A stretch of 64,000 nucleotides of DNA from assembly GCA_964291395.2 (NCBI GenBank), contig OZ219856.1, positions 1,536,001 through 1,600,000 on the forward strand. The letters run 5' to 3'. Source of the stretch: Alphaproteobacteria bacterium (GTDB taxonomy: Bacteria; Pseudomonadota; Alphaproteobacteria; UBA2966). The notes under the pieces are model-generated. The model was not told the DNA's origin. It saw only the letters and a program-made list of their open reading frames with translations, and did no database searches. Positions 5,094 through 36,878 of this stretch are shown here, piece by piece (position 1 is the stretch's first letter; every line of letters begins with the position of its first letter). Both the position numbers and the translations under genes were made by a program.

Positions 5094-5189
5094 GGTAACT
5101 CTCCCTTTCTAGTGTGGTGTCGAAATCTTTGCACACTTCCCCACATGGTTTGTAGTGTTTCATGTGCCGCTGGTGGAGGAGCTCGAGAA

Positions 5190-6110
5190 ATGTCTTTTGA
5201 ACGCGTCGCGGTGACGGGGGGCGCGGGACGGCTCGGCACGCATATCACGGACGCGGTGCCCGCTGGCCGGGCGGTGACCGTCATCGACATCGCCCCGCCG
5301 CCGCGGCCGGACGCCGATTTCGTCGAGGCGGACATTTCGGACCGGGAGGCCCTGACGAAGGCCTTCGCCGGCCACGACGCCGTCATGCACCTGGCGGCTG
5401 TCCCCAACCTGTTCGCGGCGGCGCCGGACGTCATCATGCAGGTCAACGTGCAGGGCACCTGGAACGTGCTTCAGGCCGCAGAGTCGGCGGGCGTCAGGCG
5501 GGTGGTCCTGTGTTCCAGCGATTCCGCGACCGGGTACACCCTCCTCAAGGAGCACATGACGCTGCCCCGGTACCTGCCGCTCGACGAGGCCCACGTCCTA
5601 CGGCCGTCGGACGCCTACGGCCTCAGCAAGCTGCTCGGCGAGGAGGTCGGCAAGAGCTTCGCGCGGCGCGGCAGGCTCGAGGTCGTGGCGCTGAGGCCGC
5701 CGTTCATCCTGTTCGAGGACTTCCACGCCGAAGTCGCGGCGCGGGTGACGGACCCGGAGAACTACGACGGGCCGGTGGCCGGCGCTCCGCGCGCCGCGGG
5801 GGGCGGCCCATGGTTCCACTACGTCGACCCCGAGGACGCCGCGCGGGCGTTCTGGCTAGCCCTGGAACCGGCGGACGTTTCGTTCGACGTGTTCTTCGTC
5901 AGCGCAACGAAGACCTACGCGCCGGCACCGACGCTCCAGATCGTCGAGCGCTTCTTCGGCGAACTGCCGGACGTGATCAAGCCGGAGGTTTATCGTGACA
6001 ACCCCTTCGCGGCGTTGTTCGATCTCGACCGAGCGCGGGACATCCTCGGCTTCGAGGCCCAGGGGACCACCGGCCGCCGACTCGCCGATGAAGCGCTCGG
6101 GTCTCGCTAA
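5190..6110 (+). CDS. NAD-dependent epimerase/dehydratase (extended SDR)
   Basis: TGGAGRLG, HLAA and YGLSK motifs; GGAGGA RBS before ATG 5190. Confidence 0.9.
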   Translation: MSFERVAVTGGAGRLGTHITDAVPAGRAVTVIDIAPPPRPDADFVEADISDREALTKAFAGHDAVMHLAAVPNLFAAAPDVIMQVNVQGTWNVLQAAESAGVRRVVLCSSDSATGYTLLKEHMTLPRYLPLDEAHVLRPSDAYGLSKLLGEEVGKSFARRGRLEVVALRPPFILFEDFHAEVAARVTDPENYDGPVAGAPRAAGGGPWFHYVDPEDAARAFWLALEPADVSFDVFFVSATKTYAPAPTLQIVERFFGELPDVIKPEVYRDNPFAALFDLDRARDILGFEAQGTTGRRLADEALGSR

Positions 6111-6211
6111 TTCGGCTGGCGCCCGTCGCCGGCGTCTGGCCACGGCGGGGTGGACCCCGTAACCTCATCGTGCCGGCCGCGGCGCGCATGCAACATTCGG
6201 GGAGGGCCGTG

Positions 6212-21408: not shown

Positions 21409-22284
21409 TCAAGGACTCTCGCGGGTGTTGATCCAGATACCGGTGACGATCAGTCCGGCCCCGAGGACCAGCCAGACCTCGACGCCCTCGCCATAGAGCA
21501 GCCAGCCGATCACGCCGATCAACGGCAGCCGCAGGAAATCGACCGGAATCACGACGCCCGTTTCGGCGGCCATGAAGGCGCGCGCCAGACAGTAGTGGGC
21601 GGTGAGGCCGACGATCCCGACCACGACCACCCACGGCCAATCCTCCGCCGTGGGCACGACGAATCCCGGAAGCGCCGGGCCGAGACCGATCACGAACTGG
21701 ATCAGGAACATGTAGAAAAGAATGGCGAGCGGCGTTTCGGTCGCCGTCATGCGCTTGGTGACGACGAAGACGACGGCGTAGCAGAACGCCGCCGCCAGCA
21801 CGATGAGGGCCGCCGACTCGACCGGGATGACCCCTGGACGGAGGATCACCAGGATTCCGCCAAAGCCGAGGAGGACGGCGAGAGCCCGTCGGACGGTCAG
21901 ACGCTCTCCAAGGACCAGGGCGGCAAGCAGGACCGTCCAGATCGGCGCGCTGAACTCGAGCGCCGTTATCTGCACCAGCGGTATCAGGGGAAGCGCGTAG
22001 AACCAGCTGTATTGTCCAACGTAGTGAACGACGTTGCGGCCGAGGTGAAAGGCGGGAATCGAGGTTCGCAATTGACCGAAGCCCGTTTCTCCGAGTCCGC
22101 CGCGCGCCAGGAAGCCGACGATGACGAGCAGCGAAATGGCGCTGCGGTAGAGCATGATCTGAAAGGCGTTGAGCTCCCCCGACAGCTCGCGTCCGGCCAG
22201 GGCGAGCGACGTGAACGAACAGATCGCGCCGAGCATCCACAGGCCACCGACGAGCGGCGAGGATTGAGGCAGGCGTGACGTCAT
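21409..22284 (-). CDS. DMT/EamA family transporter
   Basis: Multi-pass membrane protein; LGER and ILRPG motifs. Confidence 0.9.
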   Translation of the reverse strand: MTSRLPQSSPLVGGLWMLGAICSFTSLALAGRELSGELNAFQIMLYRSAISLLVIVGFLARGGLGETGFGQLRTSIPAFHLGRNVVHYVGQYSWFYALPLIPLVQITALEFSAPIWTVLLAALVLGERLTVRRALAVLLGFGGILVILRPGVIPVESAALIVLAAAFCYAVVFVVTKRMTATETPLAILFYMFLIQFVIGLGPALPGFVVPTAEDWPWVVVVGIVGLTAHYCLARAFMAAETGVVIPVDFLRLPLIGVIGWLLYGEGVEVWLVLGAGLIVTGIWINTRESP

Positions 22285-22340
22285 GAAGGAACATCATTCA
22301 GACCCTCGGTACGCGCCGCAAGTAACGGGAGAGCTGCAAC

Positions 22341-22694
22341 TAGAGCACTTTTCGTTCAGACGGGGTCATATCCTGCAGCGGCGAAGTAGTTTTGGCATTC
22401 GGCCGGGGTGAAGTTGTCTGTGGCTTGGCCGGTGGCCTCCCAGAGTTCGTTGAGGGTGCGTGCGGCTCTGCGCTTGAGGTAGGCCTTGAGCTTGGAGAAG
22501 GCCATCTCGATCGGGTTGAAGTCGGGGCTGTATGGCGGCAGGAAGCGCAATTCGGCTCCGGCGCCCTGGATGGCGTCGCGCACGGCGGCGCTGCAGTGGC
22601 AGGCAAGGTTGTCCATCACCACGATGTCGCCGGGCTTGAGCGAGGGCACTAGCACCTATTCGACGTAGGCGAGGAAGGCGGCGCCATGCATGGC
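22341..22694 (-). mobile_element. IS630-family remnant (3' end only, internal stop)
   Basis: VVMDNL..H and [12 protein letters not shown] motifs; end TAGAGCAC; close copy of 33880-34230. Confidence 0.9.
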
Positions 22695-22821
22695 AACCCG
22701 AACATGCCCATGTGAAGCTTGGTGGTCCAGCCGCGGCGGGACCTGCCGATCGACTGAGGACCGTTTTTTGCGCCGCCGCGCCAGTACATATTCCAGCCGT
22801 CGTTGACACATGAGCCGCCGT

Positions 22822-22976
22822 CACGCCCACACAGCAGCTTGGGATACCGACCGCCGGCCCCGGAAACGATCGTACGCCAAGCTGGCCGCCCGGCTCCGCT
22901 ACGCTCCGCCGGCCACCCAGCTTGGCCGAGAAACCATCAATGCACTTTAACTGGACCAGTCAGCGGGGGCCGATCA
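22822..22976 (+). mobile_element. IS3-family 3' remnant with right end
   Basis: RPHSSLGYRPPAPE motif; terminal ACTGGACCAGTCAGCGGGGGCCGATCA ending in CA. Confidence 0.75.
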
Positions 22977-23007
22977 GCCTCACTGCGCAAGGCATATTTG
23001 AAAGCGA

Positions 23008-24399
23008 TTAAATCAGACCGGGCGGTGGCCCAATTGGCACAATCGATTGTTCAAAAGCCGCGCCGATTCGAAGGGCAGACGCCTCGTCGTTCCTTCGGGT
23101 GATGATCTGCAGTCCACCCGGCAAATGTTCGGGTGTCAGTCCCATCGGCAGGGACAAGGCGCAGGTAGCCAAATAACTCACAGGCCGCGTAAAGCGCCCA
23201 GCTATGGCAGACCGGTCGATATCCGGCAAGGGAATGGGAGCCGTCGCCATGGTGGGTGTAAGTACCGCAGCGAAGCCACGCATGCTTTCCTCAAACGCAG
23301 AGAAATGGATTTGCCGCTGCAGGCGGGTGGCGATGTAGTCGCGAGCCGAGATGTCTCGTCCCGCCAGGACCTTGCGGCGAATTTCTTCGTCGACACGGGC
23401 GTCCGGATTCTCCATCAGGGTACCGTGATGGGCATAGACTTCCGCAGTAAAAATTAGACCGTTTGCTTCGGCCATGGTTTGATAGGGAACAGGCGGCTCG
23501 TAAGGAATGATTTCCGCACCCAACGAACGCAGGCGCTCCAACGCGACGTCGTAAAGCCCTAGAATTGCCTCTTCCACGCCCTCGCGATCCTGTTTCCGCA
23601 GCGCACCGAGACGGAGACCACGAATACTTTCTCCCGTCACCTCTGCCGAAATGCCGTGGTCACCCAAATGGTGTTCCAGATCTCTGGCGCTTACTCCTGC
23701 CATGACATCGAACATGAAAGATGTGTCGGCCGTAGAACGGGTCATCGGCCCTGGCGTATCTTGCGTGTGCGAGCAGGGAATAATACCGTCGGTGGGCAGA
23801 AAGTTTTCGGTCACTTTGAGTCCCACGCCGCCACACCAGGCGGAAGGCATGCGCACCGAACCACCGGTGTCCGTTCCAACAGCACAGGGCACAAGACCGG
23901 CCGCGACAGCAACGCCCGAGCCACTCGAGGAACCGCCGGGTGTGCGATGAATTTGCAAATCCCATGGGTTCCACGGAGTCCCCATGTGCTGGTTGGTGCC
24001 CCAACCGCCCATTGCGATTTCGGTCGTTTTGGTCTTACCAATCAGGATACCGCCCGCGGCAAGCAACCGCTGTGCGATTGTCGCCGTGGCCGGTGAAAGG
24101 CGTTGAGCCATCTCCGCCGAGCCGCCGGTGGTGATACGGCCCTCAACATCAATTAGGTCTTTGAGGGCAAAGGGAATGCCGTGGAATGGACCGACCTGAT
24201 GACCGCTACGGATCGCCTTGTCGGCAGCTTCCGCCGCAAGGCGTGCATCATCGGCGTAGACAGCCTGGAATGCACCAAGTTTGCTGTCGAGGGTCTCAAT
24301 CCTGCTCAATATGGCGTCGATGACTTCGCTCGGCGCCACGGCGCCATGTCGGTAGTCCTGCGCCAGGCCAATTGCACTCTGAAATGGGTCGGTGGACAT
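23008..24399 (-). CDS. Amidase-signature family amidase (lower GC than backbone)
   Basis: ALKD, PGGSSSGS and GTDTGGSVR (Lys-cisSer-Ser triad). Confidence 0.93.
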   Translation of the reverse strand: MSTDPFQSAIGLAQDYRHGAVAPSEVIDAILSRIETLDSKLGAFQAVYADDARLAAEAADKAIRSGHQVGPFHGIPFALKDLIDVEGRITTGGSAEMAQRLSPATATIAQRLLAAGGILIGKTKTTEIAMGGWGTNQHMGTPWNPWDLQIHRTPGGSSSGSGVAVAAGLVPCAVGTDTGGSVRMPSAWCGGVGLKVTENFLPTDGIIPCSHTQDTPGPMTRSTADTSFMFDVMAGVSARDLEHHLGDHGISAEVTGESIRGLRLGALRKQDREGVEEAILGLYDVALERLRSLGAEIIPYEPPVPYQTMAEANGLIFTAEVYAHHGTLMENPDARVDEEIRRKVLAGRDISARDYIATRLQRQIHFSAFEESMRGFAAVLTPTMATAPIPLPDIDRSAIAGRFTRPVSYLATCALSLPMGLTPEHLPGGLQIITRRNDEASALRIGAAFEQSIVPIGPPPGLI

Positions 24400-24509
24400 C
24401 TATTCCCGCCTTCTTGTTGATCGTTTGCGGCACTTCGGCATTTTCGGACTAACTGGATCGGACCAATAGAACCAACAATCGGGGTCTCTCAGGCCTCACT
24501 CCGTAGCGG

Positions 24510-24719
24510 CTAAGGCTCAATTGCAGACCGATCGTACCGGCCAGCAATGGAGTGGAAGGGGAAGCGACCCAGAACCTTGTCGCCAGCGGAAAGCTCCAGC
24601 ATCCAGTTCCCCGATTCGCTTCGGCACGGTCCAACCTTTTCGACACCTTGGAGGTGGATGGGATGAACCGCGGCGTTCCCCTGCACAAACACGGTGATCG
24701 CCCTCGACTCCTCACTCAT
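24510..24719 (-). CDS. Small hypothetical protein
   Basis: 69 aa ORF with plausible composition and GGAG-like upstream sequence. Confidence 0.4.
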   Translation of the reverse strand: MSEESRAITVFVQGNAAVHPIHLQGVEKVGPCRSESGNWMLELSAGDKVLGRFPFHSIAGRYDRSAIEP

Positions 24720-24986
24720 GTCCGTCTCCTATCTTCCGTTCGGGGCTCAAATCATGCCCCGCAGACGTACCCTCCGGGAACCGACCCCGGCTGAGAAGCG
24801 TTGAGAACCACGTTTCCCGTCTCGGTTCGGGCTGCGCCTCCAGGAGGATACAAGAACGGCAGCACCGCGACGGGCGTCCGGCCCCGCATGACCACACGGA
24901 GTTCGTGCACGTCACCGCCGATTGCAACTGAGGCCGATCGGGCCGCCGGGCGGGAGGCCGAGCGTCTCCCTCCCGTCCGGCGGTCA

Positions 24987-25077
24987 CTCAGATGTGGATG
25001 CGCTCGATCTCGTCGAGCGAGATCTCCTCGGGCAGTTTGTTGTAGAGCTGCGTCGTACGCGTCGAGGCGTGGCCCGC
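24987..25077 (-). pseudogene. C-terminal piece of a split tyrosine recombinase
   Basis: AGHASTRTTQLYNKLPEEISLDEIERIHI* carries the catalytic His and Tyr. Confidence 0.88.
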
Positions 25078-25109
25078 AAGCGGGGATCAATTCCGTCAGC
25101 CCTTTCGCT

Positions 25110-25243
25110 TACCCTCCACGAGGTCCATTAAACACCTATAAATCAATCACTTGACACAGGTGAACAGACGCTTCATCCTACCAACGCTTTCGCTATGCAT
25201 CCACCCTATCCGCGCCTGGGCGGGGGGATAAATGGGGGGATAA
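25110..25243. promoter_or_regulatory. Left att accessory sites: arm-type repeats and IHF consensus
   Basis: TGGAGGGTA (minus strand, 25110-25118); AATCAAtcacTTG 25141-25153 fits WATCAANNNNTTR; GGGGGGATAA twice at 12-bp period (25222, 25234). Confidence 0.65.
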
Positions 25244-25252
25244 TCCTCTGGC

Positions 25253-26479
25253 ATGAAAGGTGAGAACGAGAAGCAAAAGCGACAATACAAGCGTCCGTTG
25301 ACAGCCAAGTTCGTCCAGTCTGTACGGGCCGCAGGCAAGTACTACGACGGTCCTGGTAGAGGATTGTATCTGCGCGTCACGCCGACAGGCTACAAGTATT
25401 GGGAGACACGCCTCACCGTCAACGGCAGGCGGCGCACCCGTGGACTGGGACCTTATCCTGCGCTCTCGCTGAAGGAGGCTCGTGAGCAAGCGCAGGAGCT
25501 TCGAATCCAAGTACGTAAGGGTGAAGATCCATTCGTCGGCAAAGGCGCTCGGGAATTGACCTTTGCCGAGGCCGCGGCTTGCGCCATCGCGGACCGCCAA
25601 TCCCAATGGTCGAACCAGGACGAGATGAAGAGGAAGTGGCTTGGCGTATTCGAGCGCTATGTCTATCCAAAAATTGGGCACTGTCCCGTGTCAGCCATTA
25701 CACCGCATGACGTGGTAGATGTTCTTCGTGGCGTTGAAAAATCTTTTCGCCGGAGCTTGCCTGTCGTGCATCAGCGTATGGGTGTCGTGTTCAAGTGGAG
25801 CAGGACCAACGGTCACTACACCGACAATCCGGTCGCCTCCATTGTTCTCAAGGATGTGTTCGGCGCAGCCCCTTCCTCGCGTCATCATCGCGCCTTGCCT
25901 CATGCGCAAGTGGCCGGTGCAATGGCGCTCGTGCGCGAATCCGAGGCGTGGTTCGGCATCCGACTGCTGTTCCTCTTTGTCGTCCTGACCGCTGTGCGTA
26001 CGAACGAGGCACGCGGGACTTTGTGGTCGGAGATCGATTTCGAGGCTGCGCGGTGGACGATACCGGCCGCTCGCATGAAATCGCGCGAGGAACATAGTGT
26101 GCCCCTGTCGACGGCGGCTCTCTCCGTGCTGAGTGAGGCTCGCGACTCCGAGCCCCTTTGCGCCGCTCGTGAGCATAGCGGCCTTCCCGAGGTTGTATTC
26201 CCGTCCCCACAGGGCCAGGTGCTCTACCACAACGCGCTCTCTAAACGCGCGAAATTGCTGCGAATTGCCGCAGTGCCGCATGGCTTTCGTTCATCATTTC
26301 GGGACTGGTGCGGCGAGACGGGTGTGGAGTTCGTCGTTGCCGAGAAATGCCTCGCCCACGAGGTAGGCAACGACGTCGTAACCGCGTACTCGCGTTCTGA
26401 CCTCTACACCCGCCGTGTTCCGGTCATGGAAGACTGGGGTCGGTATGTAATTCCGGGTTCTGGCGGCGCGGCCCGCTGA
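25253..26479 (+). CDS. P4-like tyrosine integrase with arm-binding domain, apparently intact
   Basis: DG.GLYLRV..G.K.W and GLGPYP..SL.EAR arm domain; catalytic R (TAVR), K (RMK), HGFR, LAH and AY. Confidence 0.93.
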   Translation: MKGENEKQKRQYKRPLTAKFVQSVRAAGKYYDGPGRGLYLRVTPTGYKYWETRLTVNGRRRTRGLGPYPALSLKEAREQAQELRIQVRKGEDPFVGKGARELTFAEAAACAIADRQSQWSNQDEMKRKWLGVFERYVYPKIGHCPVSAITPHDVVDVLRGVEKSFRRSLPVVHQRMGVVFKWSRTNGHYTDNPVASIVLKDVFGAAPSSRHHRALPHAQVAGAMALVRESEAWFGIRLLFLFVVLTAVRTNEARGTLWSEIDFEAARWTIPAARMKSREEHSVPLSTAALSVLSEARDSEPLCAAREHSGLPEVVFPSPQGQVLYHNALSKRAKLLRIAAVPHGFRSSFRDWCGETGVEFVVAEKCLAHEVGNDVVTAYSRSDLYTRRVPVMEDWGRYVIPGSGGAAR

Positions 26480-26641
26480 GGTCGGCCGATTTTGGTCGGC
26501 ACCGCACTTCCATCGTTTTCGCAACACGATTTGGGAGGAGGTTGAAGCGAAATATCATGATGCCGTGCGAGCCAACCTTCGAAACTGACCGGACCCCCGC
26601 TGAGCCGGCGCTGGGACATCGACGCCCACTCAGGCGCTTGG

Positions 26642-26866
26642 TCAAAGCCTGCAGCGTCGTTGTTTACCCTCTGGTCGACGTCCCCGTCCGCTGCCGTCAG
26701 GTGCAGCGGCGTCAGGCCGGTATCGCTTTACCGACAGACCGAGGGCGTCGACGATCTCGCTTTTGACGAACGCGGCGGGATGGACGGGGTTCTTAATGTG
26801 GATGCCTTGCGCGTGCGAAACCGCTTCGACGAGGGACCGGTTCGGGTCCATGCCGAACGCGCTCAT
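26642..26866 (-). pseudogene. Chimeric antitoxin remnant (XRE-type N-terminus plus internally deleted HigA-like part)
   Basis: MSAFG...SLVEAVSHAQG followed by IKNPVHPAAFVKSEIVDALGLSV then KRYRP; no complete HTH. Confidence 0.6.
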
Positions 26867-26936
26867 TTCCTCCTCCTTTCCCCGTTCCGGGCACTGCCAC
26901 CGGCGAGCACGGAACGCCCCTTGACTCCCGCACCGA

Positions 26937-27077
26937 CTAAACCATAAACGCCCCAACGATCAGGGTCAGGGACAAGACCAGGTTCAAGCCCAGCATCCAC
27001 TTCAAGAGCGTGAGATCGTTCTCGATCTTCGCCAGTCGATTGTCGTACCCCGCGATTTCTTCCGTCGCCAATTCCAT
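26937..27077 (-). pseudogene. DUF1640/CCDC90-like coiled-coil plus TM C-terminal fragment
   Basis: EEIAGYDNRLAKIENDLTLLKWMLG motif. Confidence 0.6.
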
Positions 27078-27172
27078 GGCGCCTCGCCTATTCGGAACAG
27101 TCCGTCCGCATCCGCACCCGGACTTCCCCGGCGAGAGCCGAAGACATCGCCTCCCCATCCCCGATCATCCGC

Positions 27173-27373
27173 TCAACGGCCGCTGCCGCGGTCGCACCAG
27201 GAACGCCGGTCCGCCAACAAGGCCTCGGCACGGGCGATGTCGTCCCGTGCCTTGGCGATGAACTCGGCGTCGCCGCCGGCCTCCTCCAGACAGGCCTCCA
27301 GATACGCGGCCATTTCCTCCGGCGTGCGGAGGTGCCCGGCGACGTCGTACGGCGAGGTGACGGTTCTTGCCAT
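27173..27373 (-). pseudogene. Truncated addiction-module antidote protein (HI1420-like)
   Basis: PYDVAGHLRTPEEMAAYLEACLEE...FIAKA.DDIARA; the HTH half is missing. Confidence 0.8.
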
Positions 27374-27397
27374 GATCACACCGGCATTGCACCCGTC

Positions 27398-27637
27398 TCA
27401 CCGCTCCTCGTCCCGGTCCTCGCGCAGCATCTCGGCGGAATGGCGTCGCAACCGGGGCATGTCGGTGCGGAACTCCGCCAGCTCCTCGAGCGGCAACGGG
27501 GTCTTTGGCCGGGCGGCCGGAGACATGCGCGCAATGGGCCGGCCATGGCGGGTGATCGACACTTCCTCTCCGCCCTCCACCCTGTCGAGCAGTTCGCTCA
27601 AGCGCCCCTTCGCGTGGGCAACATCGACCGTCAACAT
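27398..27637 (-). CDS. Phd/YefM antitoxin, orphan
   Basis: AKGRLSELLDRVEGGEEVSITRHGRPIAR. Confidence 0.88.
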   Translation of the reverse strand: MLTVDVAHAKGRLSELLDRVEGGEEVSITRHGRPIARMSPAARPKTPLPLEELAEFRTDMPRLRRHSAEMLREDRDEER

Positions 27638-27703
27638 AACACCATCATCTCTCATTCCCGGCCACGCAGAGACCACGCGGGCTCGTCGCTCGCCCGGCCT
27701 CCG

Positions 27704-27940
27704 TCAAGCCTTTCGAGGAGGTTCCTCGTCCAGGGCGGACTCCAGGGACCCTTCGTCCGTGACGCCGGCATCCCCAGCTACGTGGCGAAGAATTCCCCTG
27801 GCCGCGCCAGCGGTCTTCGGCACGATGGTAATGCGCCCGTCGGCGACGAAGCTGCGGACCTCGTCGCCTGGTCCGATCCCGGCCTCCCTGCACTGATCGG
27901 CAGGGAGCGTGATCCGGCGCCTGGCGCTCACTCGCGGCAT
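27704..27940 (-). CDS. AbrB/MazE-type antitoxin, orphan
   Basis: MPRVSARRRITLPADQCREAGIGPGDEV. Confidence 0.85.
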   Translation of the reverse strand: MPRVSARRRITLPADQCREAGIGPGDEVRSFVADGRITIVPKTAGAARGILRHVAGDAGVTDEGSLESALDEEPPRKA

Positions 27941-28094
27941 GGGACCATTCCCCGGACAGGAGCAATAGCGAAAGGCAATGTCGAATTCTCCACCAGCGGC
28001 TCAGCGGCAAGGAGCCTGCAACACCGGCGGGACCGAAGGACAGCTCCTGGCGCTCTCCGGTCCGACGGCGTCGAGGGCGTGATGTTCTGGAGCA

Positions 28095-28361
28095 TCAGCC
28101 GGCCACCAGACTTCCGGTCTCCCGGAACAGGCGATCGTATTCGGCCAGCAGCGCCTCGTCCGCAGGTTCGTCGTGCTCCCACTTGCGCCACTCGACCAGA
28201 GCCCTCCACCACATCCGATCCACCGCTTTCGATCTCGGATCGGTCGCTATAAGGAACACCGGCATCGGACACGGCCACCAGGTCTTGGCTGGCACGCCGA
28301 GGGGTGCGAGCGCGATAGCTGCCGCTCCAGCCGCGCCCCGCATCGTGGATTCATATGTCAA
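28095..28361 (-). CDS. Small Trp-rich hypothetical protein
   Basis: TTG start overlaps the stop of 28358..28696. Confidence 0.4.
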   Translation of the reverse strand: MTYESTMRGAAGAAAIALAPLGVPAKTWWPCPMPVFLIATDPRSKAVDRMWWRALVEWRKWEHDEPADEALLAEYDRLFRETGSLVAG

Positions 28362-28696
28362 GGCGTGTTCTCCCCTTCTGCCACGTCATCGACTTCCCTG
28401 AGCACCGGAACATCGTCATCCCCGCCGGCGCCCGGCACCTCCTCCAGCACCGGCTTGGCCAGCGCCGCCAGGTACAGTTCCAGGTCCTCCCGCAGTTCCT
28501 CCAGAGTATTGCCCTGGGGAGCCCGGCCCTCCACGGACCAGGCGACGATCTCTTGGGCATCGCCGTCGATCTCATAATGGACCTCGTGCACGACGTAGAA
28601 GTACGGCTCGTCCCATCCGGACACGTGCCGGTGCCTGATGACCCGATGGTTCCACACGCTGCGTTTCTCATCGGTGTCGCTATCCGATGCCGCCAT
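28358..28696 (-). CDS. Hypothetical protein with WNHRV..HEVHY..GNTLEEL motif (phage-type, possibly HicB-like fold)
   Basis: GGAGG RBS; acidic 112 aa ORF. Confidence 0.7.
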   Translation of the reverse strand: MAASDSDTDEKRSVWNHRVIRHRHVSGWDEPYFYVVHEVHYEIDGDAQEIVAWSVEGRAPQGNTLEELREDLELYLAALAKPVLEEVPGAGGDDDVPVLREVDDVAEGENTP

Positions 28697-29761
28697 GTTC
28701 CGACCTCCCGTTCCAGTCCGCGCCTGCATCAGCCTCCCGTTCCAGCCTCTGGATGATGGCCTCCCGGATCCGGGTGCCGCGGTTCGCCGTGCGCTTCGGC
28801 GTCTCGGAGCGCACCGTCGAGCAGCGGCTTCCCCAAGGCAGGTTCACATGGGCTGACCTCGCCAGAGCTGGACGGATGGTTGCAATGGGGGTGAAAAAAT
28901 ATTTCGACTTCGCGATCCAGAGACCCGAGCTAATTCGGTCGCAGCCACTTAAATGACTGAACGCCTGACAAGAGCCCCGTAGCGCCCTGAACTCCCTTAC
29001 AAACATCCCATCTACCTCGACGATTCTCCTACGCGCGCGTCTCGAAGGCCCGAAGGCCGCCCCGGTGTTGCGGGCGCGTCAGGCGTTGTCGGCCTCTTTG
29101 AGCAGCGCCACGATCCCATCGGCCAACTCCCGGATCGGCGCGTTCAGCCCGTCTCCGTAGTCGTTCAAGACCACGTCGCCCACGATGGATCAAGAGCTTC
29201 GCCAAACCGCGCGGCACGCTCACCAAGCCAGGAATGGACAATTATAGCGGTAGCCACGCCGAATGGTACGAGGCCTTTCCCAGGTTGCGGCGTGGATCTC
29301 AGTCGCCAAGTGATGGAGACGCTTAACAAATACGATCCGGAAGGCACTTCGAAGGCGATGAAAGGCCTAAAACTGCAAACGCCTGAACAAGCTAGAGCTG
29401 GCTACGTCGTCATGGCAGCGTTCATGCTACGACTTCACGATGTGAATTCGAACTCGCATGCTGGTCGGTTCTGAAACAGCTGCAAGTGCATCACTGAGAC
29501 CGGGCACGGATCTGTGTGCGATCGTTGCGGACTTCCTTCGACACGAGCACAAAACTGCGTCACGCTGGACCGGAAGGACCGGCGAATTTAGGGCCGCCAC
29601 TTGAGCATGATTATATTATGTGACGGTGGGCAATGCCGGTCGGCGCGCTATACGGTCTGGTGATTTGACTTTCGGCGCGCCCAACCCTGACGGCAGGCCG
29701 GCAATAAGCAACGCTCCGGGAAACGGCGTTGCGGACGCAGGCGCCAAAGCGGCTTCGGGGT

Positions 29762-29824
29762 TGTCCTTTCATTTTGATTGATGATGACCCTAAATCTGTC
29801 CGGACCAAATAAATGGAAGGGACA
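29762..29824. repeat. 63-bp palindromic element, copy A (degenerate)
   Basis: TGTCC...GGGACA; 48/63 ungapped identity to 32765..32827. Confidence 0.75.
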
Positions 29825-29996
29825 AGATAGGTTCAATACGAGAGTTCCGGAAGTTACCATGCAGTATCAGCCATTGCCGAGGGTTTCCGAGTGATGCCGT
29901 ACGCTACTTGTAACTTCCATGCAACTTTGGTCGACGCACCCGTCTGCATGGGAGGGATTGGTGAACCACTCGCCGGGGTTGGACGAAACTGTCGGA

Positions 29997-30150
29997 AACA
30001 TGGCCGTCATCCGACACTTCGCCTTCAACCTCCTGCGCATCGTCGACGACAAGCGCTCCATCAAGCTGCGCCGAAAGCGTGCCGCCAGAAACAACCAATA
30101 CCTCGCCGAAATCCTCCAACAGTTACGCCGTTAACCCGGATTCACGGCCG
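29997..30150 (+). mobile_element. ISAs1-family transposase C-terminal remnant
   Basis: NMAVIRHFAFNLLR...SIKLRRKRAA.N..YL..IL motif. Confidence 0.8.
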
Positions 30151-30754
30151 TGACAAAGTCCGAGGTTTTTATAATCGCATGGGCAAAAGTCGGCCCATTG
30201 ACGCGATGAGCAGCGTCCATTTCATCCCAGCTAACGCCTGCCGTTGCATCGGTAATCAATGTTACGTTATAGCCAAGCTCCATACCGTAGCGAGCGGTTG
30301 ATTCGATGCAGGTGTTCACGCGCAAACCAACAACGACAATTTTCGATACCCCATGCTTTTTAAGCAGCATATCAAGATCCGTATTCGCAAAACCACTTTG
30401 CGCCCAATGCTCCTGCACAATAACGTCGCCGTCTTGCGGCTGAAATTCTGGGTGAAACTCACCACCCCATTCGCCATCAGCAAATAGTTTCAAATCTCGG
30501 CTGCGTTCTTGTGTTGGGGCGTAATTAACCCAGCCGTCATAACGTCCGGCGCGATATCGGCGATGCGGCACGAAAAATACTGTGATCCCGGCATTGCGAC
30601 ACAGGTCAACAATCACTTTCAGGTTCTCGAACAACTTGACCTCAGTAGCGACTTTCTCGATATGCGGATATAATATCCCGCCTTCCGCCAAAAAATCATT
30701 GTAAGGATCAACGAGCAGTAATGCTGTGTCCAATGGAGTGTGGCTGTTTGTCAT
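30131..30754 (-). CDS. Isochorismatase-family cysteine hydrolase (low GC)
   Basis: LLLVDPYNDF, SGFANTDLD and NTCIESTAR motifs. Confidence 0.92.
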   Translation of the reverse strand: MTNSHTPLDTALLLVDPYNDFLAEGGILYPHIEKVATEVKLFENLKVIVDLCRNAGITVFFVPHRRYRAGRYDGWVNYAPTQERSRDLKLFADGEWGGEFHPEFQPQDGDVIVQEHWAQSGFANTDLDMLLKKHGVSKIVVVGLRVNTCIESTARYGMELGYNVTLITDATAGVSWDEMDAAHRVNGPTFAHAIIKTSDFVTAVNPG

Positions 30755-31068
30755 ACCGTATCATCCTTCTCCTAGCCGACACCCAAGTGGCGTGCGGCTT
30801 GACGGTGAGATTTCCAGAACGAGCGATTTGATCAAGCGTCTTCTGCCTCGAGGCTCGTCTCTGGTCGGGGAAGTGCCCGGAACCGGGCAGATCGGGACAG
30901 AATTAAGCCGACATTCACCAGATGAACGTCGTTTCCGGCGATGAGGGTAGCCGTTCCGGCCATCGACGGCAATTTTCATGTTGATGGGCTGTAACCGTAA
31001 GGCTCCCGATCGGCGCGGAAGAACTGCAGGGACGGGCACACGCCTTTGGCTGACCCCCGCGGCGGCCT

Positions 31069-31270
31069 GGCTTCCTGGGCGATCCACCAACCGGCCAGAT
31101 CGGGTTGATCGCGCAATATGGCGGTGATCTTGCCGCGGCCTTTGAGATAGCAGAGACCGCAGTTGCCTTCGTAAGACCGCAGTGCCAGGTCAAAGGGCTG
31201 ACGCTGCCACCAGGCGAGCACATCGCGCTCTGAGCACGCCCTCTTTTGTTGCATGACGAGACAGAACCCG
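31069..31270 (-). pseudogene. Fragment of phage-type PAPS-reductase-like protein
   Basis: DVLAWWQRQPFDL..EGNCGLCYLK...WWIAQE. Confidence 0.6.
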
Positions 31271-31587
31271 ACTCCATTTTGACGCCAGAATATTTTTGGT
31301 CTCGCGCCTCAGATTGATCAGTCCAAATGCGCGGTTGTATACCCCCACCTGATTTAGCGATACTTGAGCATTACCCTACGAACGTGGAGGCTGAAATGAA
31401 GATTTCCAGTGTCGTCTTGGGTGCTGCTCTTGGAGCCCTCTTTGCAATTCCGATTGCGTCTGCACCATCGAGTGGGAGTAGCGACTGGTTGCACTTCTTC
31501 AGGTCGTGATCGTCTTTCCCACAATCATCTTCTGGAACTCGGTACGCCAGGGCGCCGCAAGTCAAAACCATCGGAGGAATTGGAAGC

Positions 31588-32466
31588 ATGATTCAGGACA
31601 CAGTTGGATTCATCGGTCTCGGGAATCTTGGCAAAGCCATTGCGGATAATATCGCCAAGGGTGGATTCGAAATGTGCGTCTACGACGTTGTCGGAGCCGA
31701 CGAACGGGCGCCACAGGGGGCAGTCGTTGGGGCCTCCGTGAGCGAAGTCGCGGAGCGGAGCGGTTTGATATTCATATGCCTTCCGACCGTCGAGTCCATC
31801 GAAACCGTGGTGGATGAGATTTGTTCGGCCAATATCGCAGACGGTACCGTGGTCGTGAACAACTCGACCGCGGGCCCGACGTGCGCGATCGCGGCCCATG
31901 GCCGACTCGGCAAAAAGGGCATCGCGTACGCGGACGCGACCATTTCGGCAACACCGCCCCGTGCACGGGCCGCGGAGGCAATCGTGATGTTCTCCGGCGA
32001 GCCTGACGTGCGGAAGCGCCTGACTCCCGTGTTCGAGTCGTTCAGCAAGCAGGTTTTCGATCTTGGCACCGTGGTCGGCAACGGTCAGCGCATGAAGCTC
32101 ATCAACAACTGCCTGGTTCATACGGCGTTGGTGGTTTCAAGTGAGGCTATGGTATGGGGCGAAAAGGGCGGGCTCGAGTTGAAGACGATGCTGAAAGTCT
32201 TGACCGAGACATCCGGTCGTAACGTCGTCACCGATCACTTCTTTCCGGACGATGTCCTGACGGAGAAATACGCATCGGGTGGGTCAATAGACATCATTCG
32301 GAAGGACATCGAACTATTCGTGGGCGAAGCCAAGGCCGCCGGTTGCCTGCACGCCGTTGCTGAAACCGCATACAACGTGATCAAGGATTGTCAGGAGCAG
32401 GTACCGGGGTTGGATCAAACTATGATGTACCCCTACACGAAAAGCGGTGGCAAAGTGTCGGCCTGA
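31588..32466 (+). CDS. NAD(P)-dependent beta-hydroxyacid dehydrogenase family protein
   Basis: GFIGLGNLG and MKLINN motifs. Confidence 0.9.
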   Translation: MIQDTVGFIGLGNLGKAIADNIAKGGFEMCVYDVVGADERAPQGAVVGASVSEVAERSGLIFICLPTVESIETVVDEICSANIADGTVVVNNSTAGPTCAIAAHGRLGKKGIAYADATISATPPRARAAEAIVMFSGEPDVRKRLTPVFESFSKQVFDLGTVVGNGQRMKLINNCLVHTALVVSSEAMVWGEKGGLELKTMLKVLTETSGRNVVTDHFFPDDVLTEKYASGGSIDIIRKDIELFVGEAKAAGCLHAVAETAYNVIKDCQEQVPGLDQTMMYPYTKSGGKVSA

Positions 32467-32764
32467 CGCGGGAAATACTCGAATGCTAAGCTCGTCTTGA
32501 GAGAACCGACACCTGACTCGTGCTGCTCTGAAGAAGCAGATTCAAATTTCACGCCATGTAGAGGTGTGACAATTCCGACAACTGCTGATCGCCATCCTTC
32601 TACAATCAGCGATAATGTGTGTTTTCCGATATGCCTTGGCGACGTCTAAGTTCCTCGCCCGACATCCCCTCTCATGAACAGGACCGAGCCGTTGTAAATT
32701 GTCGTTGAGAAACTTGTGCCTCACCGGGAAGCTCCTGGATTCGCAATATGCGCCATTGGACACC

Positions 32765-32827
32765 TGTCCCTTCTATTTAATCGGTCATGATCCTAAATCA
32801 GTCCAGATCGATTAAATAAAAGGGACA
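32765..32827. repeat. 63-bp palindromic element, copy B (22-bp stem, 19-nt loop)
   Basis: TGTCCCTTCTATTTAATCGGTC ... GATCGATTAAATAAAAGGGACA. Confidence 0.85.
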
Positions 32828-33311
32828 GGGACAGGTTTTCTTGTCACCCACCCGGAGATTACGCCATCCCCAAATTTCCACCACGTACGAGGCAGAGCAA
32901 ACCGAGGTATCTGAAGCTAAAGGAGTTGTCTCGAAGAATTTGCTCTGACAAAGCCCCGGCTATCAATGGATGACTTCGCCGGTCCAGCGGTCGCGGTTCG
33001 CCCAGAACGGGCATTCCGGGCAGACCGTTCCATCGTAGTCAGTGAACCACACCGTGAACGCACCGACCCTATGCGCGACATGTCTACCGAGGCGCGCCCT
33101 CCAGCGTCGCGGCACGTAGTCGGAGTTCTCGGTGGCTCATCGTGCGCGTGACATCGTACCCCTTGGTGCTGCTCGGAAAGACCAGAGGCAAGGTCGCTAC
33201 ACATTCCGTCGCCGCTTGACCAGTTGCTGCCAGGCGTGTCGACGGCGTTCAATCGTAGATCAAACTTTACGTCTCCGGCACCGGTTGAAGTATTTTCAAT
33301 TGGTGGTCTTT

Positions 33312-33433
33312 TGGAGGGAAGCGTGGAGGGAGAACTCTGTCAGCACGGCGCTGCTGCACAATAAATTGTAGCAAAAACAGTCTGTTATCTAGATATTGGG
33401 AGCTCGACGCTGGTCCATCCCCGTTCGGTCCGC
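33312..33433. promoter_or_regulatory. Right att region: arm-type repeats, IHF-like site, core half-site
   Basis: TGGAGGGA twice at 12-bp period (33312, 33324); AAACAGtctgTTA 33375-33387; ATCCCCG before CCGC. Confidence 0.6.
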
Positions 33434-33795
33434 GATCCGCGCCGCAACCTCCAGGTCGCCTCCGTTCCGCAGGTACTCCGTGATCCCCGTCCCCCGGAAG
33501 CTGTGCGCGCATATCTCCGCGGGCAGACCCGCACGCTGCGCACGGCGCTTGATGGTCGCGAACGCTCCATGCCGCGTGAGGCCCTCCTCGAGCAGCGCAT
33601 CGCGCGGACCGGGACCCGTGCGCCGGAACAAAGGCCCGCGGCGGTCGTGAGCGATACCTGACGCCTCGAGGTAGGCATCGACATACTCCTACATCGTATG
33701 GTGGGCGGGAACCACGTTGTATCGGCTCCCCTTCTCGTGAAGACGGAAGAACGAGCGCGGTCCCTGCGTGTAGTAGTCGCCGACCCGAAGCGAGG
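33430..33795 (-). pseudogene. Upstream piece of the split tyrosine recombinase (5' truncated, in-frame TAG at 33689-33691)
   Basis: LRVGDYY...RLHEKG...PAHH...CAHSFRGTGITEYLRNGGDLEVAARIA. Confidence 0.88.
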
Positions 33796-33879
33796 CCGCT
33801 TCGGGTCGGGCAACCATCAATCCGACAGACCATTCGGAAACCAAGCGAGTCCGGCTCAGTCCTCGATCAACACGGTCAC

Positions 33880-34647
33880 TAGAGCACATTTCGTTCAGAC
33901 GCGGTCATATCCTGCAGCAGCGAAGTAGTTTTGGCACTCGGCCGGGCTGAAGTTGTCTGTGGCTTGGCCGATGGCCTCCCAGAGCTCGTTGAGGGTGCGG
34001 GCGGCGCGTTGCTTGAGGGAGGCCTTGAGCTTGGAGAAGGCCATCTCGATCGGGTTGAAGTCGGGGCTGTATGGCGGCAGGAAGCGCAGTTCGGCTCCGG
34101 CGCCTTGGATGGCGTCGCGCACGGCGGCGCTGCGGTGGCAGGCAAGGTTGTCCATCACCACGATGTCGCCGGGCTTGAGCGAGGGCACCAGCACCTGTTC
34201 GACGTAGGCGAGGAAGGCGGCGCCGTGCATGGCGCCGTCGAGCACCATGGGCGCGGTCATGCCGCTCAACCTCAAGGCACCGACGAAGGTCGTGGTCCTC
34301 CAATGTCCATTAGGCACCGGCGCCCTGCACCCCTGTCCGCGCATGGCCCGGCCGCATCGTCGCGCCATCTTGGTGGACGCGCCGGTCTCATCGACGAAGA
34401 CGAGCGTGTCGGGCTCGAGATCGGGCTGTGTCTCGATCCAGGCCCGCCTGCGCCTGAGCACGTCAGCGCGTTGCTGCTCGCTGGCGGGTCATGCTGCCAT
34501 CGACAACCGCCCTCACTACCCGGCGACGCAGATCATTCGAAAGAGGTCGTATCATGCAGGCTGGCCTCCTTCACCAGCCCGCATCTTGAATCACATTTCC
34601 AAGAGATTGAAAATTCTAATGATTCTCTAAGGGCGAAAAATGCTCTA
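33880..34647 (-). mobile_element. Internally deleted IS630-family element with both ends
   Basis: Ends TAGAGCACATTTCG and CGAAAAATGCTCTA; N-terminus MIRPLSNDLRRRVV (ATG 34555) joined out of frame to the DDE domain (FVDETG, MDNL, PIE). Confidence 0.88.
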
Positions 34648-35030
34648 GATTACGGCAATATCCCGCGTCTCAAGTCTTGGAGTACCGTCGGCAGCCAGTC
34701 GTCCTCGGCGCGGGCGATCTTTCGCTTTCGACGCTTTCAAGGTAAGCGTTGGGTGACCCCGTCTTGACGTGCCCATGCGACTTGCACGATCCGCGTACCC
34801 ATCAGACGTTTCTGGAGGGGTTGTCGACTGCGGACTCCTGAACGCAGGAATATCTGCATCGCCGTGAGCATTACGGTCGACATACGGTAGTCCTACAAAC
34901 CCATCGATTGCAGGCAATCTACTGATTTCAGATCGTAGTGCGCTACCTCCCGGACGCGACGCGGACACATGCAATCACGCCTAATTGACCCAACACATTG
35001 GCTTGTATTGTGGCTCTGCCCCAACATGTC

Positions 35031-35161
35031 TGTTCTATAAACGGATCATTAATCTATCTTATGATCGGTTTATGGAGCACAAACTTTCCAATCCACTTGA
35101 AATCCACTAGAATGATCTATAAATAAGTCATGACCCTTATTCATGATCTATTTATGGATCA
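35031..35161. promoter_or_regulatory. Four 18-bp imperfect palindromes (putative HipB-like operators)
   Basis: Sites at 35031, 35062, 35113 and 35144; consensus TGATCYATAAAYGGATCA. Confidence 0.75.
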
Positions 35162-35170
35162 AACAAAGCA

Positions 35171-35509
35171 ATGGCGAAGCCCGCAAACAGAAGCTATTCC
35201 CGCTATGCCCGTGAAGCCGCAGAGCTTCTCGGGCTGATGATCCATAACGCGCGCATCGAACGCGACATCACGGTCGCCGATGTCGCCGAACGAGCCGGGA
35301 TTTCGCGCGGCCTTGTGCACCGCATCGAAAAAGGCGAAATGGGCTCCTCCATCGGTGCGGCCTTCGAGGTGGCCGCCATTATCGGGCTGCGCTTGTTCGA
35401 AGCCGAACCGACAACGCTGACGCGCCATCTGTCGATGGAACGAGACAAGCTCACCCTGCTACCGAAATCCGTCCGCACGGGAACGACGAAGGTGAAAGAT
35501 GACTTCTGA
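35171..35509 (+). CDS. XRE-family antitoxin (HipB-like)
   Basis: HTH VAERAGISRGLVHRIEKG; overlaps the hipA-like start. Confidence 0.88.
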   Translation: MAKPANRSYSRYAREAAELLGLMIHNARIERDITVADVAERAGISRGLVHRIEKGEMGSSIGAAFEVAAIIGLRLFEAEPTTLTRHLSMERDKLTLLPKSVRTGTTKVKDDF

Positions 35510-36779
35510 TCGCCCCGACACGAAAGCGCCGGAAGAAGCCTATGTCTGGGTATGGCTGCCCGGCGCGACTGCACCGGTCGTCGCCGGTCGCATCGCGCAT
35601 GACGGCGAGCGGCTGATCTTCAACTACGGTCAGAGCTATCTGGATCGGAATGACCGCATTCCGATCTACGAGCCGGAACTGCCGCTGCGCAGCGGAGCGA
35701 TTGCGCCCGAAGTCGGGCTGAGCATGGCCGGATGTCTGCGCGACGCCGCGCCCGATGCGTGGGGCCGTCGCGTCATTCTGAACCGGACCTTCGGACGCAA
35801 GGGCAATGATGTCGACACCGCTACACTCGACGAGCTGACCTATCTACTGGAGTCCGGCTCCGACCGCATCGGCGCTCTGGACTTCCAGCGCTCCCCTTCC
35901 GAGTACGTGCCGCGCGTCGTTCAAGCCGCGACGCTCGAAGAGCTGCTGAGCGCCGCCGAGAAAGTCGAGAATGGCGTGCCGTTGACGCTCGAGCTCGATC
36001 AGGCACTGTTCCACGGTACGTCGCTCGGCGGCGCGCGCCCGAAGGCGACGATCCAGGACGGCGACACAAAGATGATCGCCAAGTTCTCGTCTTCGACCGA
36101 CACCTACAACGTGGTGAAGGCGGAATATGTCGCCATGCGCCTTGCTGCCAAGGCGGGGCTTGACGTCGCCCCCGTGCGTCTTGAGCACGTCGCCGGCAAG
36201 GACGTGCTTCTGGTCGAGCGTTTCGACCGCGCAAAGACGAAAGACGACTGGACGCGCAAGGCGATGGTCTCGGCGCTGACGCTGTTCGGTCTCGATGAAA
36301 TGATGGCGCGTTACGCCAGCTATGAAGTCCTCGCGGAAATCATTCGGCACCGCTTCACCTCGCCGAAGGCGACGTTGCACGAGCTGTACGGACGGCTCGT
36401 GTTCAATATCCTGTGCGGCAACACCGACGATCACGCCCGCAACCATGCGAGCTTCTGGGACGGCGAACACCTGACCCTGACGCCTGCCTATGACATCTGT
36501 CCGCAAAGCCGTTCCGGCAATGTGGCCAGCCAGGCGATGCTGATCGTCGGAGACAATCGGACGAGCACACTTGCGATCTGCCTCGAGGCCGCGCCCAGTT
36601 TCCAGCTCAGCGAGAAAGCCGCGAAGGACATCGTCGCCCGGCAGATCGGTACTGTCCGGGACGAATGGGACGACATCTGCCAGGAAGCCGTATTGACCGA
36701 AGTCGAGCGTAACCTGTTCGGCGAACGCATCTTTCTGAATGACTTCATCTTCGAAGGCACGCCGGACGGCCTGCGGTGA
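35499..36779 (+). CDS. hipA: HipA-family kinase toxin
   Basis: SLGGARPKA, NTDDHARNH and LTPAYD motifs. Confidence 0.92.
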   Translation: MTSDRPDTKAPEEAYVWVWLPGATAPVVAGRIAHDGERLIFNYGQSYLDRNDRIPIYEPELPLRSGAIAPEVGLSMAGCLRDAAPDAWGRRVILNRTFGRKGNDVDTATLDELTYLLESGSDRIGALDFQRSPSEYVPRVVQAATLEELLSAAEKVENGVPLTLELDQALFHGTSLGGARPKATIQDGDTKMIAKFSSSTDTYNVVKAEYVAMRLAAKAGLDVAPVRLEHVAGKDVLLVERFDRAKTKDDWTRKAMVSALTLFGLDEMMARYASYEVLAEIIRHRFTSPKATLHELYGRLVFNILCGNTDDHARNHASFWDGEHLTLTPAYDICPQSRSGNVASQAMLIVGDNRTSTLAICLEAAPSFQLSEKAAKDIVARQIGTVRDEWDDICQEAVLTEVERNLFGERIFLNDFIFEGTPDGLR

Positions 36780-36878
36780 TGGGCAAGCGCCACCCGCCGA
36801 CGGAAGAGTGATCGAAGTTCTCGAACAGCTTCGATCGGCGCGCCTTCGATCGGAGTCGAAGGACGGCCAGCGGCGCCA

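Follow-up and report, generated by a model that had tools for sequence, protein, structure and literature searches.

How does a genomic island come to lie inside the catalytic region of a recombinase gene that belongs to another mobile element, and is such a gene the place to which its integrase is normally directed? The question is raised by a 64,000-nucleotide (64-kb) stretch of an alphaproteobacterial genome (GTDB lineage UBA2966; assembly GCA_964291395.2, contig OZ219856.1, positions 1,536,001 to 1,600,000), referred to below as the window, in which a minus-strand tyrosine recombinase gene is interrupted by an island carrying a tyrosine integrase gene of the CP4/P4 type. The insertion is precise, with bases shared between its two ends and an intact integrase just within one of them; the interrupted gene has decayed, and the insertion is present in other samples. 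We consider it probable that this arrangement goes back to a single integrase-mediated insertion at a weakly matching secondary site, followed by independent decay of both elements and by fixation. We infer that the island's own integrase made the insertion and that the site was secondary rather than preferred. The locus is a nested genomic island, a kind of arrangement already known, in which a site-specific element was inserted to the base within the catalytic region of another element's recombinase and was then frozen.

Translation of the window gives two pieces of a tyrosine recombinase on the minus strand. One runs from 33892 to 33434 (...CAHSFRGTGITEYLRNGGDLEVAARI, with the C-terminal letters ...GGDLEVAARI), and the other from 25077 to 24990 (AGHASTRTTQLYNKLPEEISLDEIERIHI), where it is followed by a stop codon at 24989-24987. 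By BLASTP, the upstream piece aligned to residues 177-298 of P0001, an intact protein of 327 amino acids (aa), with 113 of 122 residues identical (E = 2e-83), and the downstream piece aligned to residues 299-327 with 28 of 29 identical; compared by eye, the last 29 residues of a second protein, P0002, agree with the downstream piece as well. The full-length P0001 (93% identity) and P0002 (91%) were the best of 2908 relatives returned from a library of 5.8 billion proteins, which was searched with the in-frame TAG of the upstream piece read as X. Because the pieces map to abutting residues (298 and 299) of P0001, both halves are exactly contiguous in one protein. Judged by this alignment, positions 33434-33799 and 24990-25077 represent residues 177-298 and 299-327 of a single 327-aa tyrosine recombinase. 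The pieces and the insert between them are as follows.

Positions 24987-25077, minus strand: 3' piece of the interrupted tyrosine recombinase (residues 299-327 and the stop codon; region of His-III and the Tyr nucleophile), from BLASTP to P0001.
Positions 25078-33433, plus strand: inserted island of 8356 bp with an integrase, orphan antitoxins, unassigned open reading frames (ORFs), an isochorismatase and a NAD-dependent dehydrogenase, from ORFs, Pfam matches, G+C content and contigs that skip it.
Positions 33434-33799, minus strand: middle piece of the interrupted recombinase (residues 177-298; HxxR box; in-frame TAG at 33689-33691), from BLASTP to P0001.

With the HxxR box in the upstream piece and the conserved His and Tyr nucleophile in the downstream one, the insert lies between residues presumed from the family to be catalytic, and its arrival would have disabled the gene. 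A preliminary description of the locus had reported the two minus-strand fragments, and their coordinates and frames hold, as does their contiguity, which is seen in both P0001 and P0002. The two peptides given there were correct in sequence and frame, except that the alanine they share was counted twice: because the Ala-299 codon falls in the tetranucleotide CCGC duplicated at the junctions, the true split is I298|A299. The possibility that the two halves come from different recombinase subfamilies can be set aside, since both align to the same protein, P0001.

The insert comprises positions 25078-33433, with CCGC at 25074-25077 and again at 33430-33433. Cutting it out restores the reading frame with zero bases lost or gained, and intact alleles match the join; P0001 and P0002 run straight through the break, in agreement with the shared CCGC and the precise in-frame join described previously. 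Contigs from four public runs (X2, X5, X6 and X10) were aligned to the window. The left junction is bridged by a piece from X2 (8093 nucleotides [nt], 25006-33044) and by one from X6 (25008-25567), and since contigs of other public runs cross it, an assembly artefact can be excluded. Three of the four runs (X2, X5 and X6) also contain contigs that pass from 25073 to 33430, with 3-4 ambiguous bases, and so leave out exactly 8356 bp; uninterrupted alleles therefore exist in the same communities. Most simply, these contigs are intact paralogues in the community, which contigs cannot tell from excised sites. Depth in X2 was 19.9 over the island, 26.6 over the unique flank and 121-541 over the recombinase 3' end, with 121.5 as the value for the bin; as the depth of the island is close to that of the unique flank, the island is present once, and most copies of the recombinase in the community lack the insert. 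A variant found in X2 and X5 has 9 other bases in place of 33045-33623 (579 bases, including the right junction), and with that junction gone the island there is no longer excisable by site-specific recombination. Other runs place the genome in sponge-associated communities.

When the island ends were joined in silico, a perfect 7-bp inverted repeat appeared across the join, with ATCCCCG at 33417-33423 and CGGGGAT at 25081-25087 standing 13 nt apart. Arms of at least 7 bp occurred in 1.45% of 4000 simulated random junctions from the genome, and the rejoined target has inverted-repeat arms of only 4 bp. From the symmetry centre of the repeat, a 7-bp overlap is placed at 33427-33433 of the right attachment site (attR), and its counterpart in the left attachment site (attL) is listed with it.

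Positions 33417-33423, plus strand: left arm ATCCCCG, putative core site C, from sequence and genome search; the extended 12-mer (33412-33423) occurs twice in the genome.
Positions 33427-33433, plus strand: attR overlap GGTCCGC, island-type, from sequence.
Positions 25071-25077, plus strand: attL overlap GGCCCGC, target-type, its last four bases (CCGC) being the perfect shared repeat, from sequence and from contig joints with 3-4 ambiguous bases.
Positions 25081-25087, plus strand: right arm CGGGGAT, putative core-type integrase site C', from sequence and simulated junctions.

The two overlaps agree at six of seven positions, and the 12 bases on either side match at 4/12 and 4/12, which is the chance level (hand count). 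A symmetric core with similarity restricted to the overlap would be the pattern expected of a tyrosine integrase acting on a poorly matched target. In the secondary-site integration of lambdoid phages, similarity between element and target is likewise confined to the overlap, and the core arms of the target do not match; here, that the site is secondary is inferred from the weak match. Candidate arm-type sites in the P' arm were rejected: the two units of a direct repeat (25097-25119 and 25182-25204) have 17 of 23 positions in common, a score also reached elsewhere in the genome, and the C1 locus considered below has no match to it.

The integrase itself lies next to this site.

Positions 25253-26479, plus strand: intact CP4/P4-type tyrosine integrase of 408 aa, from Pfam and from a structure match of the N-terminal domain.

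It starts 175 bp in from the left edge of the island and contains the three expected domains, namely PF13356 (Arm-DNA-bind_3, E = 1.2e-18), PF22022 (Phage_int_M, E = 3.3e-15) and PF00589 (Phage_integrase, E = 2.3e-16, profile positions 3-168 of 172), so that the earlier reading of an intact P4-like integrase at this distance from the edge was sound. The N-terminal domain resembles the solved arm-binding domains of CP4-like integrases (3ju0 and 3jtz). Against the NCBIfam model PRK09692, the protein scored 142.7 bits with a cut-off of 434 and is therefore a relative rather than a member at the level of that model. Its candidate catalytic residues are presumably those in the motifs ...AVRTNEA..., ...MKSREEH..., HGFR, LAHE and AYSRS.

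In a collection of species-representative genomes, integrase relatives were found at 56 loci, all with 46% identity or less. At 25 of the 56, the integrase match is preceded, at a distance of 154-288 bp, by the end of a same-strand tRNA or tmRNA gene. The arrangement in the window is the same, with 175 bp between the junction and the integrase start. Identity reached at most 40% in metagenome, 33% in viral and 38% in plasmid collections, and relatives at 46% identity or below are too distant to share site specificity. Close homologues came from a large protein library: P0205 (87%), P0206 (82%, with six cluster members), P0207 (78%, accession MCY4499233.1, labelled as a Rhodospirillaceae metagenome-assembled genome) and the truncated P0208 (87%). 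P0205 has an N-terminal extension that is the translation of a sequence homologous to the P' arm of the window, as far as about 72 nt before the start codon; because it matches that arm, related islands exist.

A canonical tRNA target was considered for the island and rejected. The 64-kb window holds no tRNA gene. A comparison of the rejoined island ends with the 72 tRNAs that stand beside relatives revealed no 3' remnant, the best score being 21 against a shuffled mean of 20.3 (p = 0.36). No cross-junction match in the genome lies within 300 nt of any of its 51 tRNA and tmRNA genes. Nor does the 4.16-Mb genome contain a second site like the rejoined ends, cross-junction matches being at most 15 nt long with E of at least 0.6.

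The course of events that we favor would begin with a small circular genomic island that integrated once, by means of its own CP4/P4-type integrase, into the 3' part of a plasmid-type recombinase gene, itself presumably part of an older accessory element. The integrase would bind the inverted 7-mers around a 7-bp overlap in the attachment site of the circular island (attP), which lies some 170 bp ahead of the integrase gene. This attP would pair with a target that matches it only in that overlap, at six of seven bases with the last four perfect. Strand exchange would then leave the island between copies of CCGC with zero bases lost or gained, and the recombinase cut into an R-K-HxxR half and a His/Tyr half. 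In later decay, the first 176 codons of the recombinase would have been lost next to an IS630 remnant and a stop codon gained; the island would have accumulated gene debris, with no excisionase recognisable and with its right junction deleted in the form seen in X2 and X5. What is seen now would be a fixed, vertically inherited relic of the lineage, not an active switch.

Several observations weigh against this account. Perfect identity between island and target extends over only 4 bp, and att-site identity is usually at least 7 bp according to one report (PMC10111431). So short an identity weakens the case for integrase action, and on that point alone a transposon-like 4-bp duplication would fit equally well. 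Because a tRNA remnant is not recognisable in the rejoined ends, a "primary" tRNA site is only assumed. No circle junction or excision event specific to this genome was observed among the assembled contigs, where absence is no proof. Finally, a 12-mer of the island's right core, GGTCCATCCCCG, has one other copy in the genome, at C1:102993, where it adjoins another 3' remnant of the same recombinase family, and a pure one-off insertion does not predict this.

Transposition, or the insertion of a composite transposon, with a 4-bp CCGC target duplication and independently of the integrase, could account for the shared bases, as many insertion sequences (IS) leave a 4-bp direct repeat without otherwise losing or adding bases, and IS debris in the form of an IS630 fragment adjoins the island. 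We judge it very unlikely. There is no intact transposase in the island; a 71-aa ORF at 29919-30134 looks transposase-like by eye, but matches no NCBIfam or Pfam family. The inverted copies of CGGGGAT are set back from the ends by unequal distances, 3 bases on the left and 10 on the right, and so are not in register; the repeat has a 7-bp spacer at its centre, in the manner of a recombinase core site. The transposon reading was rejected for want of in-register terminal repeats and of a transposase.

Whichever enzyme acted, the interrupted gene has since decayed further, as the preliminary description had remarked: 176 codons are missing from its 5' end, and an in-frame TAG stands at 33689-33691. 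Homology to the intact recombinase starts, at residue 177, exactly at a near-perfect palindrome in which the reverse complement of the gene sequence stands ahead of it, and a transposase fragment adjoins the cut end.

Positions 33778-33810, no strand: near-perfect palindrome where the recombinase gene is broken on its 5' side, read from the sequence.
Positions 33895-34461, minus strand: IS630-family transposase fragment adjoining the cut 5' end of the recombinase, from NCBIfam NF033545 (profile positions 128-298 of 299).

Going by its sequence, the palindrome looks like the junction or scar of a fold-back rearrangement. An excision-controlled switch, which had been entertained for this locus, is ruled out today by the 176 missing codons, the stop codon and the X2/X5 form that has no right junction.

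Intact relatives of the host recombinase carry Phage_int_SAM_4/SAM_1 and Phage_integrase domains. P0001 scored 121.9 against TIGR02225 (cut-off 329.6) and 102.4 against TIGR02224 (cut-off 335.15); as these scores are far under the XerC/XerD equivalog cut-offs, the host recombinase is not XerC or XerD itself. It is best described as an XerC/D-like recombinase of the plasmid type. Copies with about 55% identity adjoin ParA/ParB genes on plasmids of about 21 and 26 kb, one of which also has a Rep gene, and one genome of the class (G324) has a recombinase copy on a 15.7-kb circular contig. In standing beside ParA/ParB on plasmids, the family resembles the XerC/D-like recombinases of plasmid backbones; only remnants survive here, the genome of the window (G000) having the family at seven loci, all of them short remnants with no intact copy among them. 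An 85-aa piece of the recombinase had no match in five congeneric genomes. Three 3' remnants, namely the window copy, C1:102999 and C3:1072925, have their starts between residues 294 and 303; a different copy in the genome, at C1:2148149-2148326, has a break at residue 182, after which it resumes at residue 313. The public protein library also contains many 5'-truncated fragments of the family.

Contigs part ways exactly at the stop codon of the recombinase, position 24987 (eight contigs in X2 and three in X5), from which it follows that the last base of the gene is also the end of the repeated unit that carries it. Inside the island, at 29282-29298, lies a 17-nt inverted copy (16/17 bases; E = 0.047 within the island) of 33434-33450, the recombinase sequence that flanks the right junction, and this copy stops at the junction base. 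Both features would suit a junction made by the host recombinase family itself, acting at a site of its own in the 3' end of its own gene and capturing circular DNA at a pseudo-site, with the integrase as cargo; so would the several solitary 3' remnants that begin near residue 300 and the inverted fusions at other remnants. Such an origin is nevertheless highly improbable in our estimation, because the inverted repeat and crossover sit where attP is expected for a P4-type integrase gene and the inverted repeat of the rejoined target is at most 4 bp. The order of N-terminal piece, insert and C-terminal piece is that of an interrupted gene, not of one that split itself, and no partial 3' duplicates were found at intact relatives (two G379 loci with 10-kb flanks and the 15.7-kb circular plasmid of G324). 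A self-splitting integrase of the SSV kind was rejected on the same two grounds, piece order and the lack of 3' duplicates at intact relatives.

If, as we favor, the island's integrase made the insertion, it may have done so at its normal target. Under dedicated targeting, the region of the Ala-Gly-His codons would be the regular attachment site, and the island would be a hyperparasite that disables a rival recombinase, which in principle could be restored on excision. The family has more than 2900 members, and its most conserved stretch is the one that contains the site, a logic like that of tRNA targets; the rejoined ends show no tRNA remnant, and the genome offers no alternative site. The lack of a replacement sequence in attP is shared with helper-embedded phage-inducible chromosomal islands (PICIs), and full-length homologues at 78-87% show the integrase lineage to be alive. 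The three remnants that begin within residues 294-303 point the same way, as does the 12-mer noted above, which occurs only at the island's right end and at C1:102993, beside a remnant of the same family. The latter position is also the best non-self match in the genome for two query sequences, a 43-mer across the right junction (31/43, the next being 30 and 29) and the 22 island bases that lead up to that junction (19/22, the next being 18). Its similarity ends right after the core, however, with a margin of one match over background and no similarity to the P' arm. Around it, at C1:102898-104208 (L156, about 4899-6210), two family remnants in opposite orientations flank a vapBC-like pair named by eye. 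The hints from C1:102993 and the remnants are equally compatible with a second hit by a related island and with an old rearranged duplicate.

We regard dedicated targeting as unlikely, since no second full example was found. The recombinase family stood beside integrase relatives at none of 145 loci, that is, the 56 genome loci and 89 further ones (9 from relatives' genomes and 80 from metagenomes; match threshold E = 0.01). Only one of the 56, L039, matches the recombinase, with two matches of about 28% identity that each lie more than 5 kb from the integrase. None of the 89 has a match at E = 0.01 or better, and tRNA or tmRNA genes are present at 39 of them. Mapping of integrase relatives in the style of TIGER, as had been suggested, thus covered distant relatives (46% identity or less), among which the recombinase AGH codons do not recur as a target. 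Among 203 listed family proteins, none is broken at the codon, and the Ala-Asp that the island-type overlap would encode is absent at that position. In none of the 120 best family proteins is ...ARI followed by a foreign tail. When the 5.8-billion-protein library was searched for the read-through tail of the right junction, none was found among 397 matches, all of which stop at ...ARIA or continue into the normal GH...; the 83 new, mostly 5'-truncated family proteins that this search brought up all pass through the site. A plus-strand ORF that spans a junction (24801-25151) had no match in a library of 1.84 billion proteins, a result that is uninformative. About 12 of 400 genomes of the class have copies with 50-56% identity, none of them interrupted at the codon and two of them cut by contig ends. 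The sites share only 4 perfect bases, and the island is single-copy despite many intact targets in the same communities. The recombinase-targeting system, with its suggestion of parasitism, that the preliminary description had put forward is not borne out by these loci and proteins. We see only a small chance, about the same as that of targeting in general, that the integrase lineage, which has at least four close relatives in public assemblies, has switched from tRNA genes to the conserved Ala-Gly-His codons of the plasmid-type recombinase family, making this a hyperparasitic island, with the 12-mer at C1:102993 and the remnants at 294-303 as scars of earlier hits.

Islands with CP4/P4-type integrases are common, and the present one shares much with the CP4-57/P4-type islands found at tRNA and tmRNA genes: the same three-domain integrase with its match to a CP4-like arm-binding domain, an integrase gene about 150-290 bp inside one end and reading inward (as at the 25 of 56 relative loci), and a mixed cargo of toxin-antitoxin and metabolic genes. 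Unlike in those islands, the target here is a protein gene of another mobile element, attP has no tRNA remnant, identity extends over 4 to 7 bp instead of tens of base pairs, and the target is destroyed without repair by a replacement 3' end. A second comparison is with helper-embedded PICIs, in which, according to the report cited above, an integrase clade repeatedly targets prophage late genes without a replacement sequence, excision has been shown experimentally, and a PICI inside an IS110 transposase gene is also mentioned (PMC10111431). As in those islands and in regulated gene integrity, the element is nested in a mobile-element gene that it disrupts, attP carries no replacement, and precise excision would restore the frame; here, unlike in the PICIs described there, a single full case is at hand, with no evidence of excision, no recognisable excisionase and a host gene that is dead on other grounds. 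Excision would not return a functional gene, as regulated gene integrity demands, because the join is in frame but residues 1-176 are missing and the TAG remains. A narrow literature search found no island that targets a tyrosine recombinase gene, which is not proof of absence from print. If the site were the normal target of the lineage, recombinase genes would join the short list of mobile-element genes to which integrases home (prophage late genes and one transposase gene), and the element would have a way to disarm a competitor.

The interior of the island holds, besides the integrase, the following features.

Positions 27173-27940, minus strand: three antitoxin-like ORFs in a row (HI1420-downstream antidote, Phd/YefM and MazE/AbrB), from Pfam.
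Positions 29762-32827, plus strand: internal cassette (29825-32764) bounded by two 63-nt palindromic direct repeats, from a repeat search.
Positions 30131-30754, minus strand: isochorismatase gene in the internal cassette, from Pfam.
Positions 31588-32466, plus strand: NAD-dependent dehydrogenase gene in the internal cassette, from Pfam.

No toxin partner for the three antitoxin ORFs was recognised among the ORFs of the island; a HicB-like ORF and a HigA-like fragment, both named by eye, lie near them. No excisionase-like protein or recombination directionality factor was recognised, and none of the ten small island ORFs has a Pfam match. G+C content is 50-60% across 29-33 kb, as against about 65% in core genes. 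The cassette repeats (29762-29824 and 32765-32827) are 76% alike and are found nowhere else in the genome. In run X10, the 2.94-kb cassette, exactly 29825-32764, is present on a 3232-nt contig with unrelated flanks and 9 differences; because it occurs there alone, the interior of the island is a mosaic, and the cassette may be a separate mobile unit of unknown type. Ten further runs resemble X10, and the whole group (X9-X19) has about 0.28 of the sampled words. The mosaic interior, the cassette with its own palindromic repeats and the fall in G+C within the island are what would be expected if the 8.4 kb were an accretion of several events, bounded by chance by two gene halves. This, too, we consider quite improbable as an account of the whole, as removal of exactly 25078-33433 restores the gene and intact alleles match the join; a single event therefore accounts for the outer boundaries, which leaves accretion as an explanation of the interior only.

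The single insertion that we favor would itself have taken place within a larger body of accessory DNA. In the congeneric genome G005, an EamA-type transporter gene directly abuts a molybdopterin oxidoreductase gene, so that about 22271-36873 of the window (14.6 kb) is accessory. Apart from the split recombinase with its island and the IS630 fragment, this block contains an amidase gene, named by eye, and two further features.

Positions 22803-23102: IS3-like fragment, named by eye from translations.
Positions 35171-36779: hipB/hipA-like pair, named by eye from translations.

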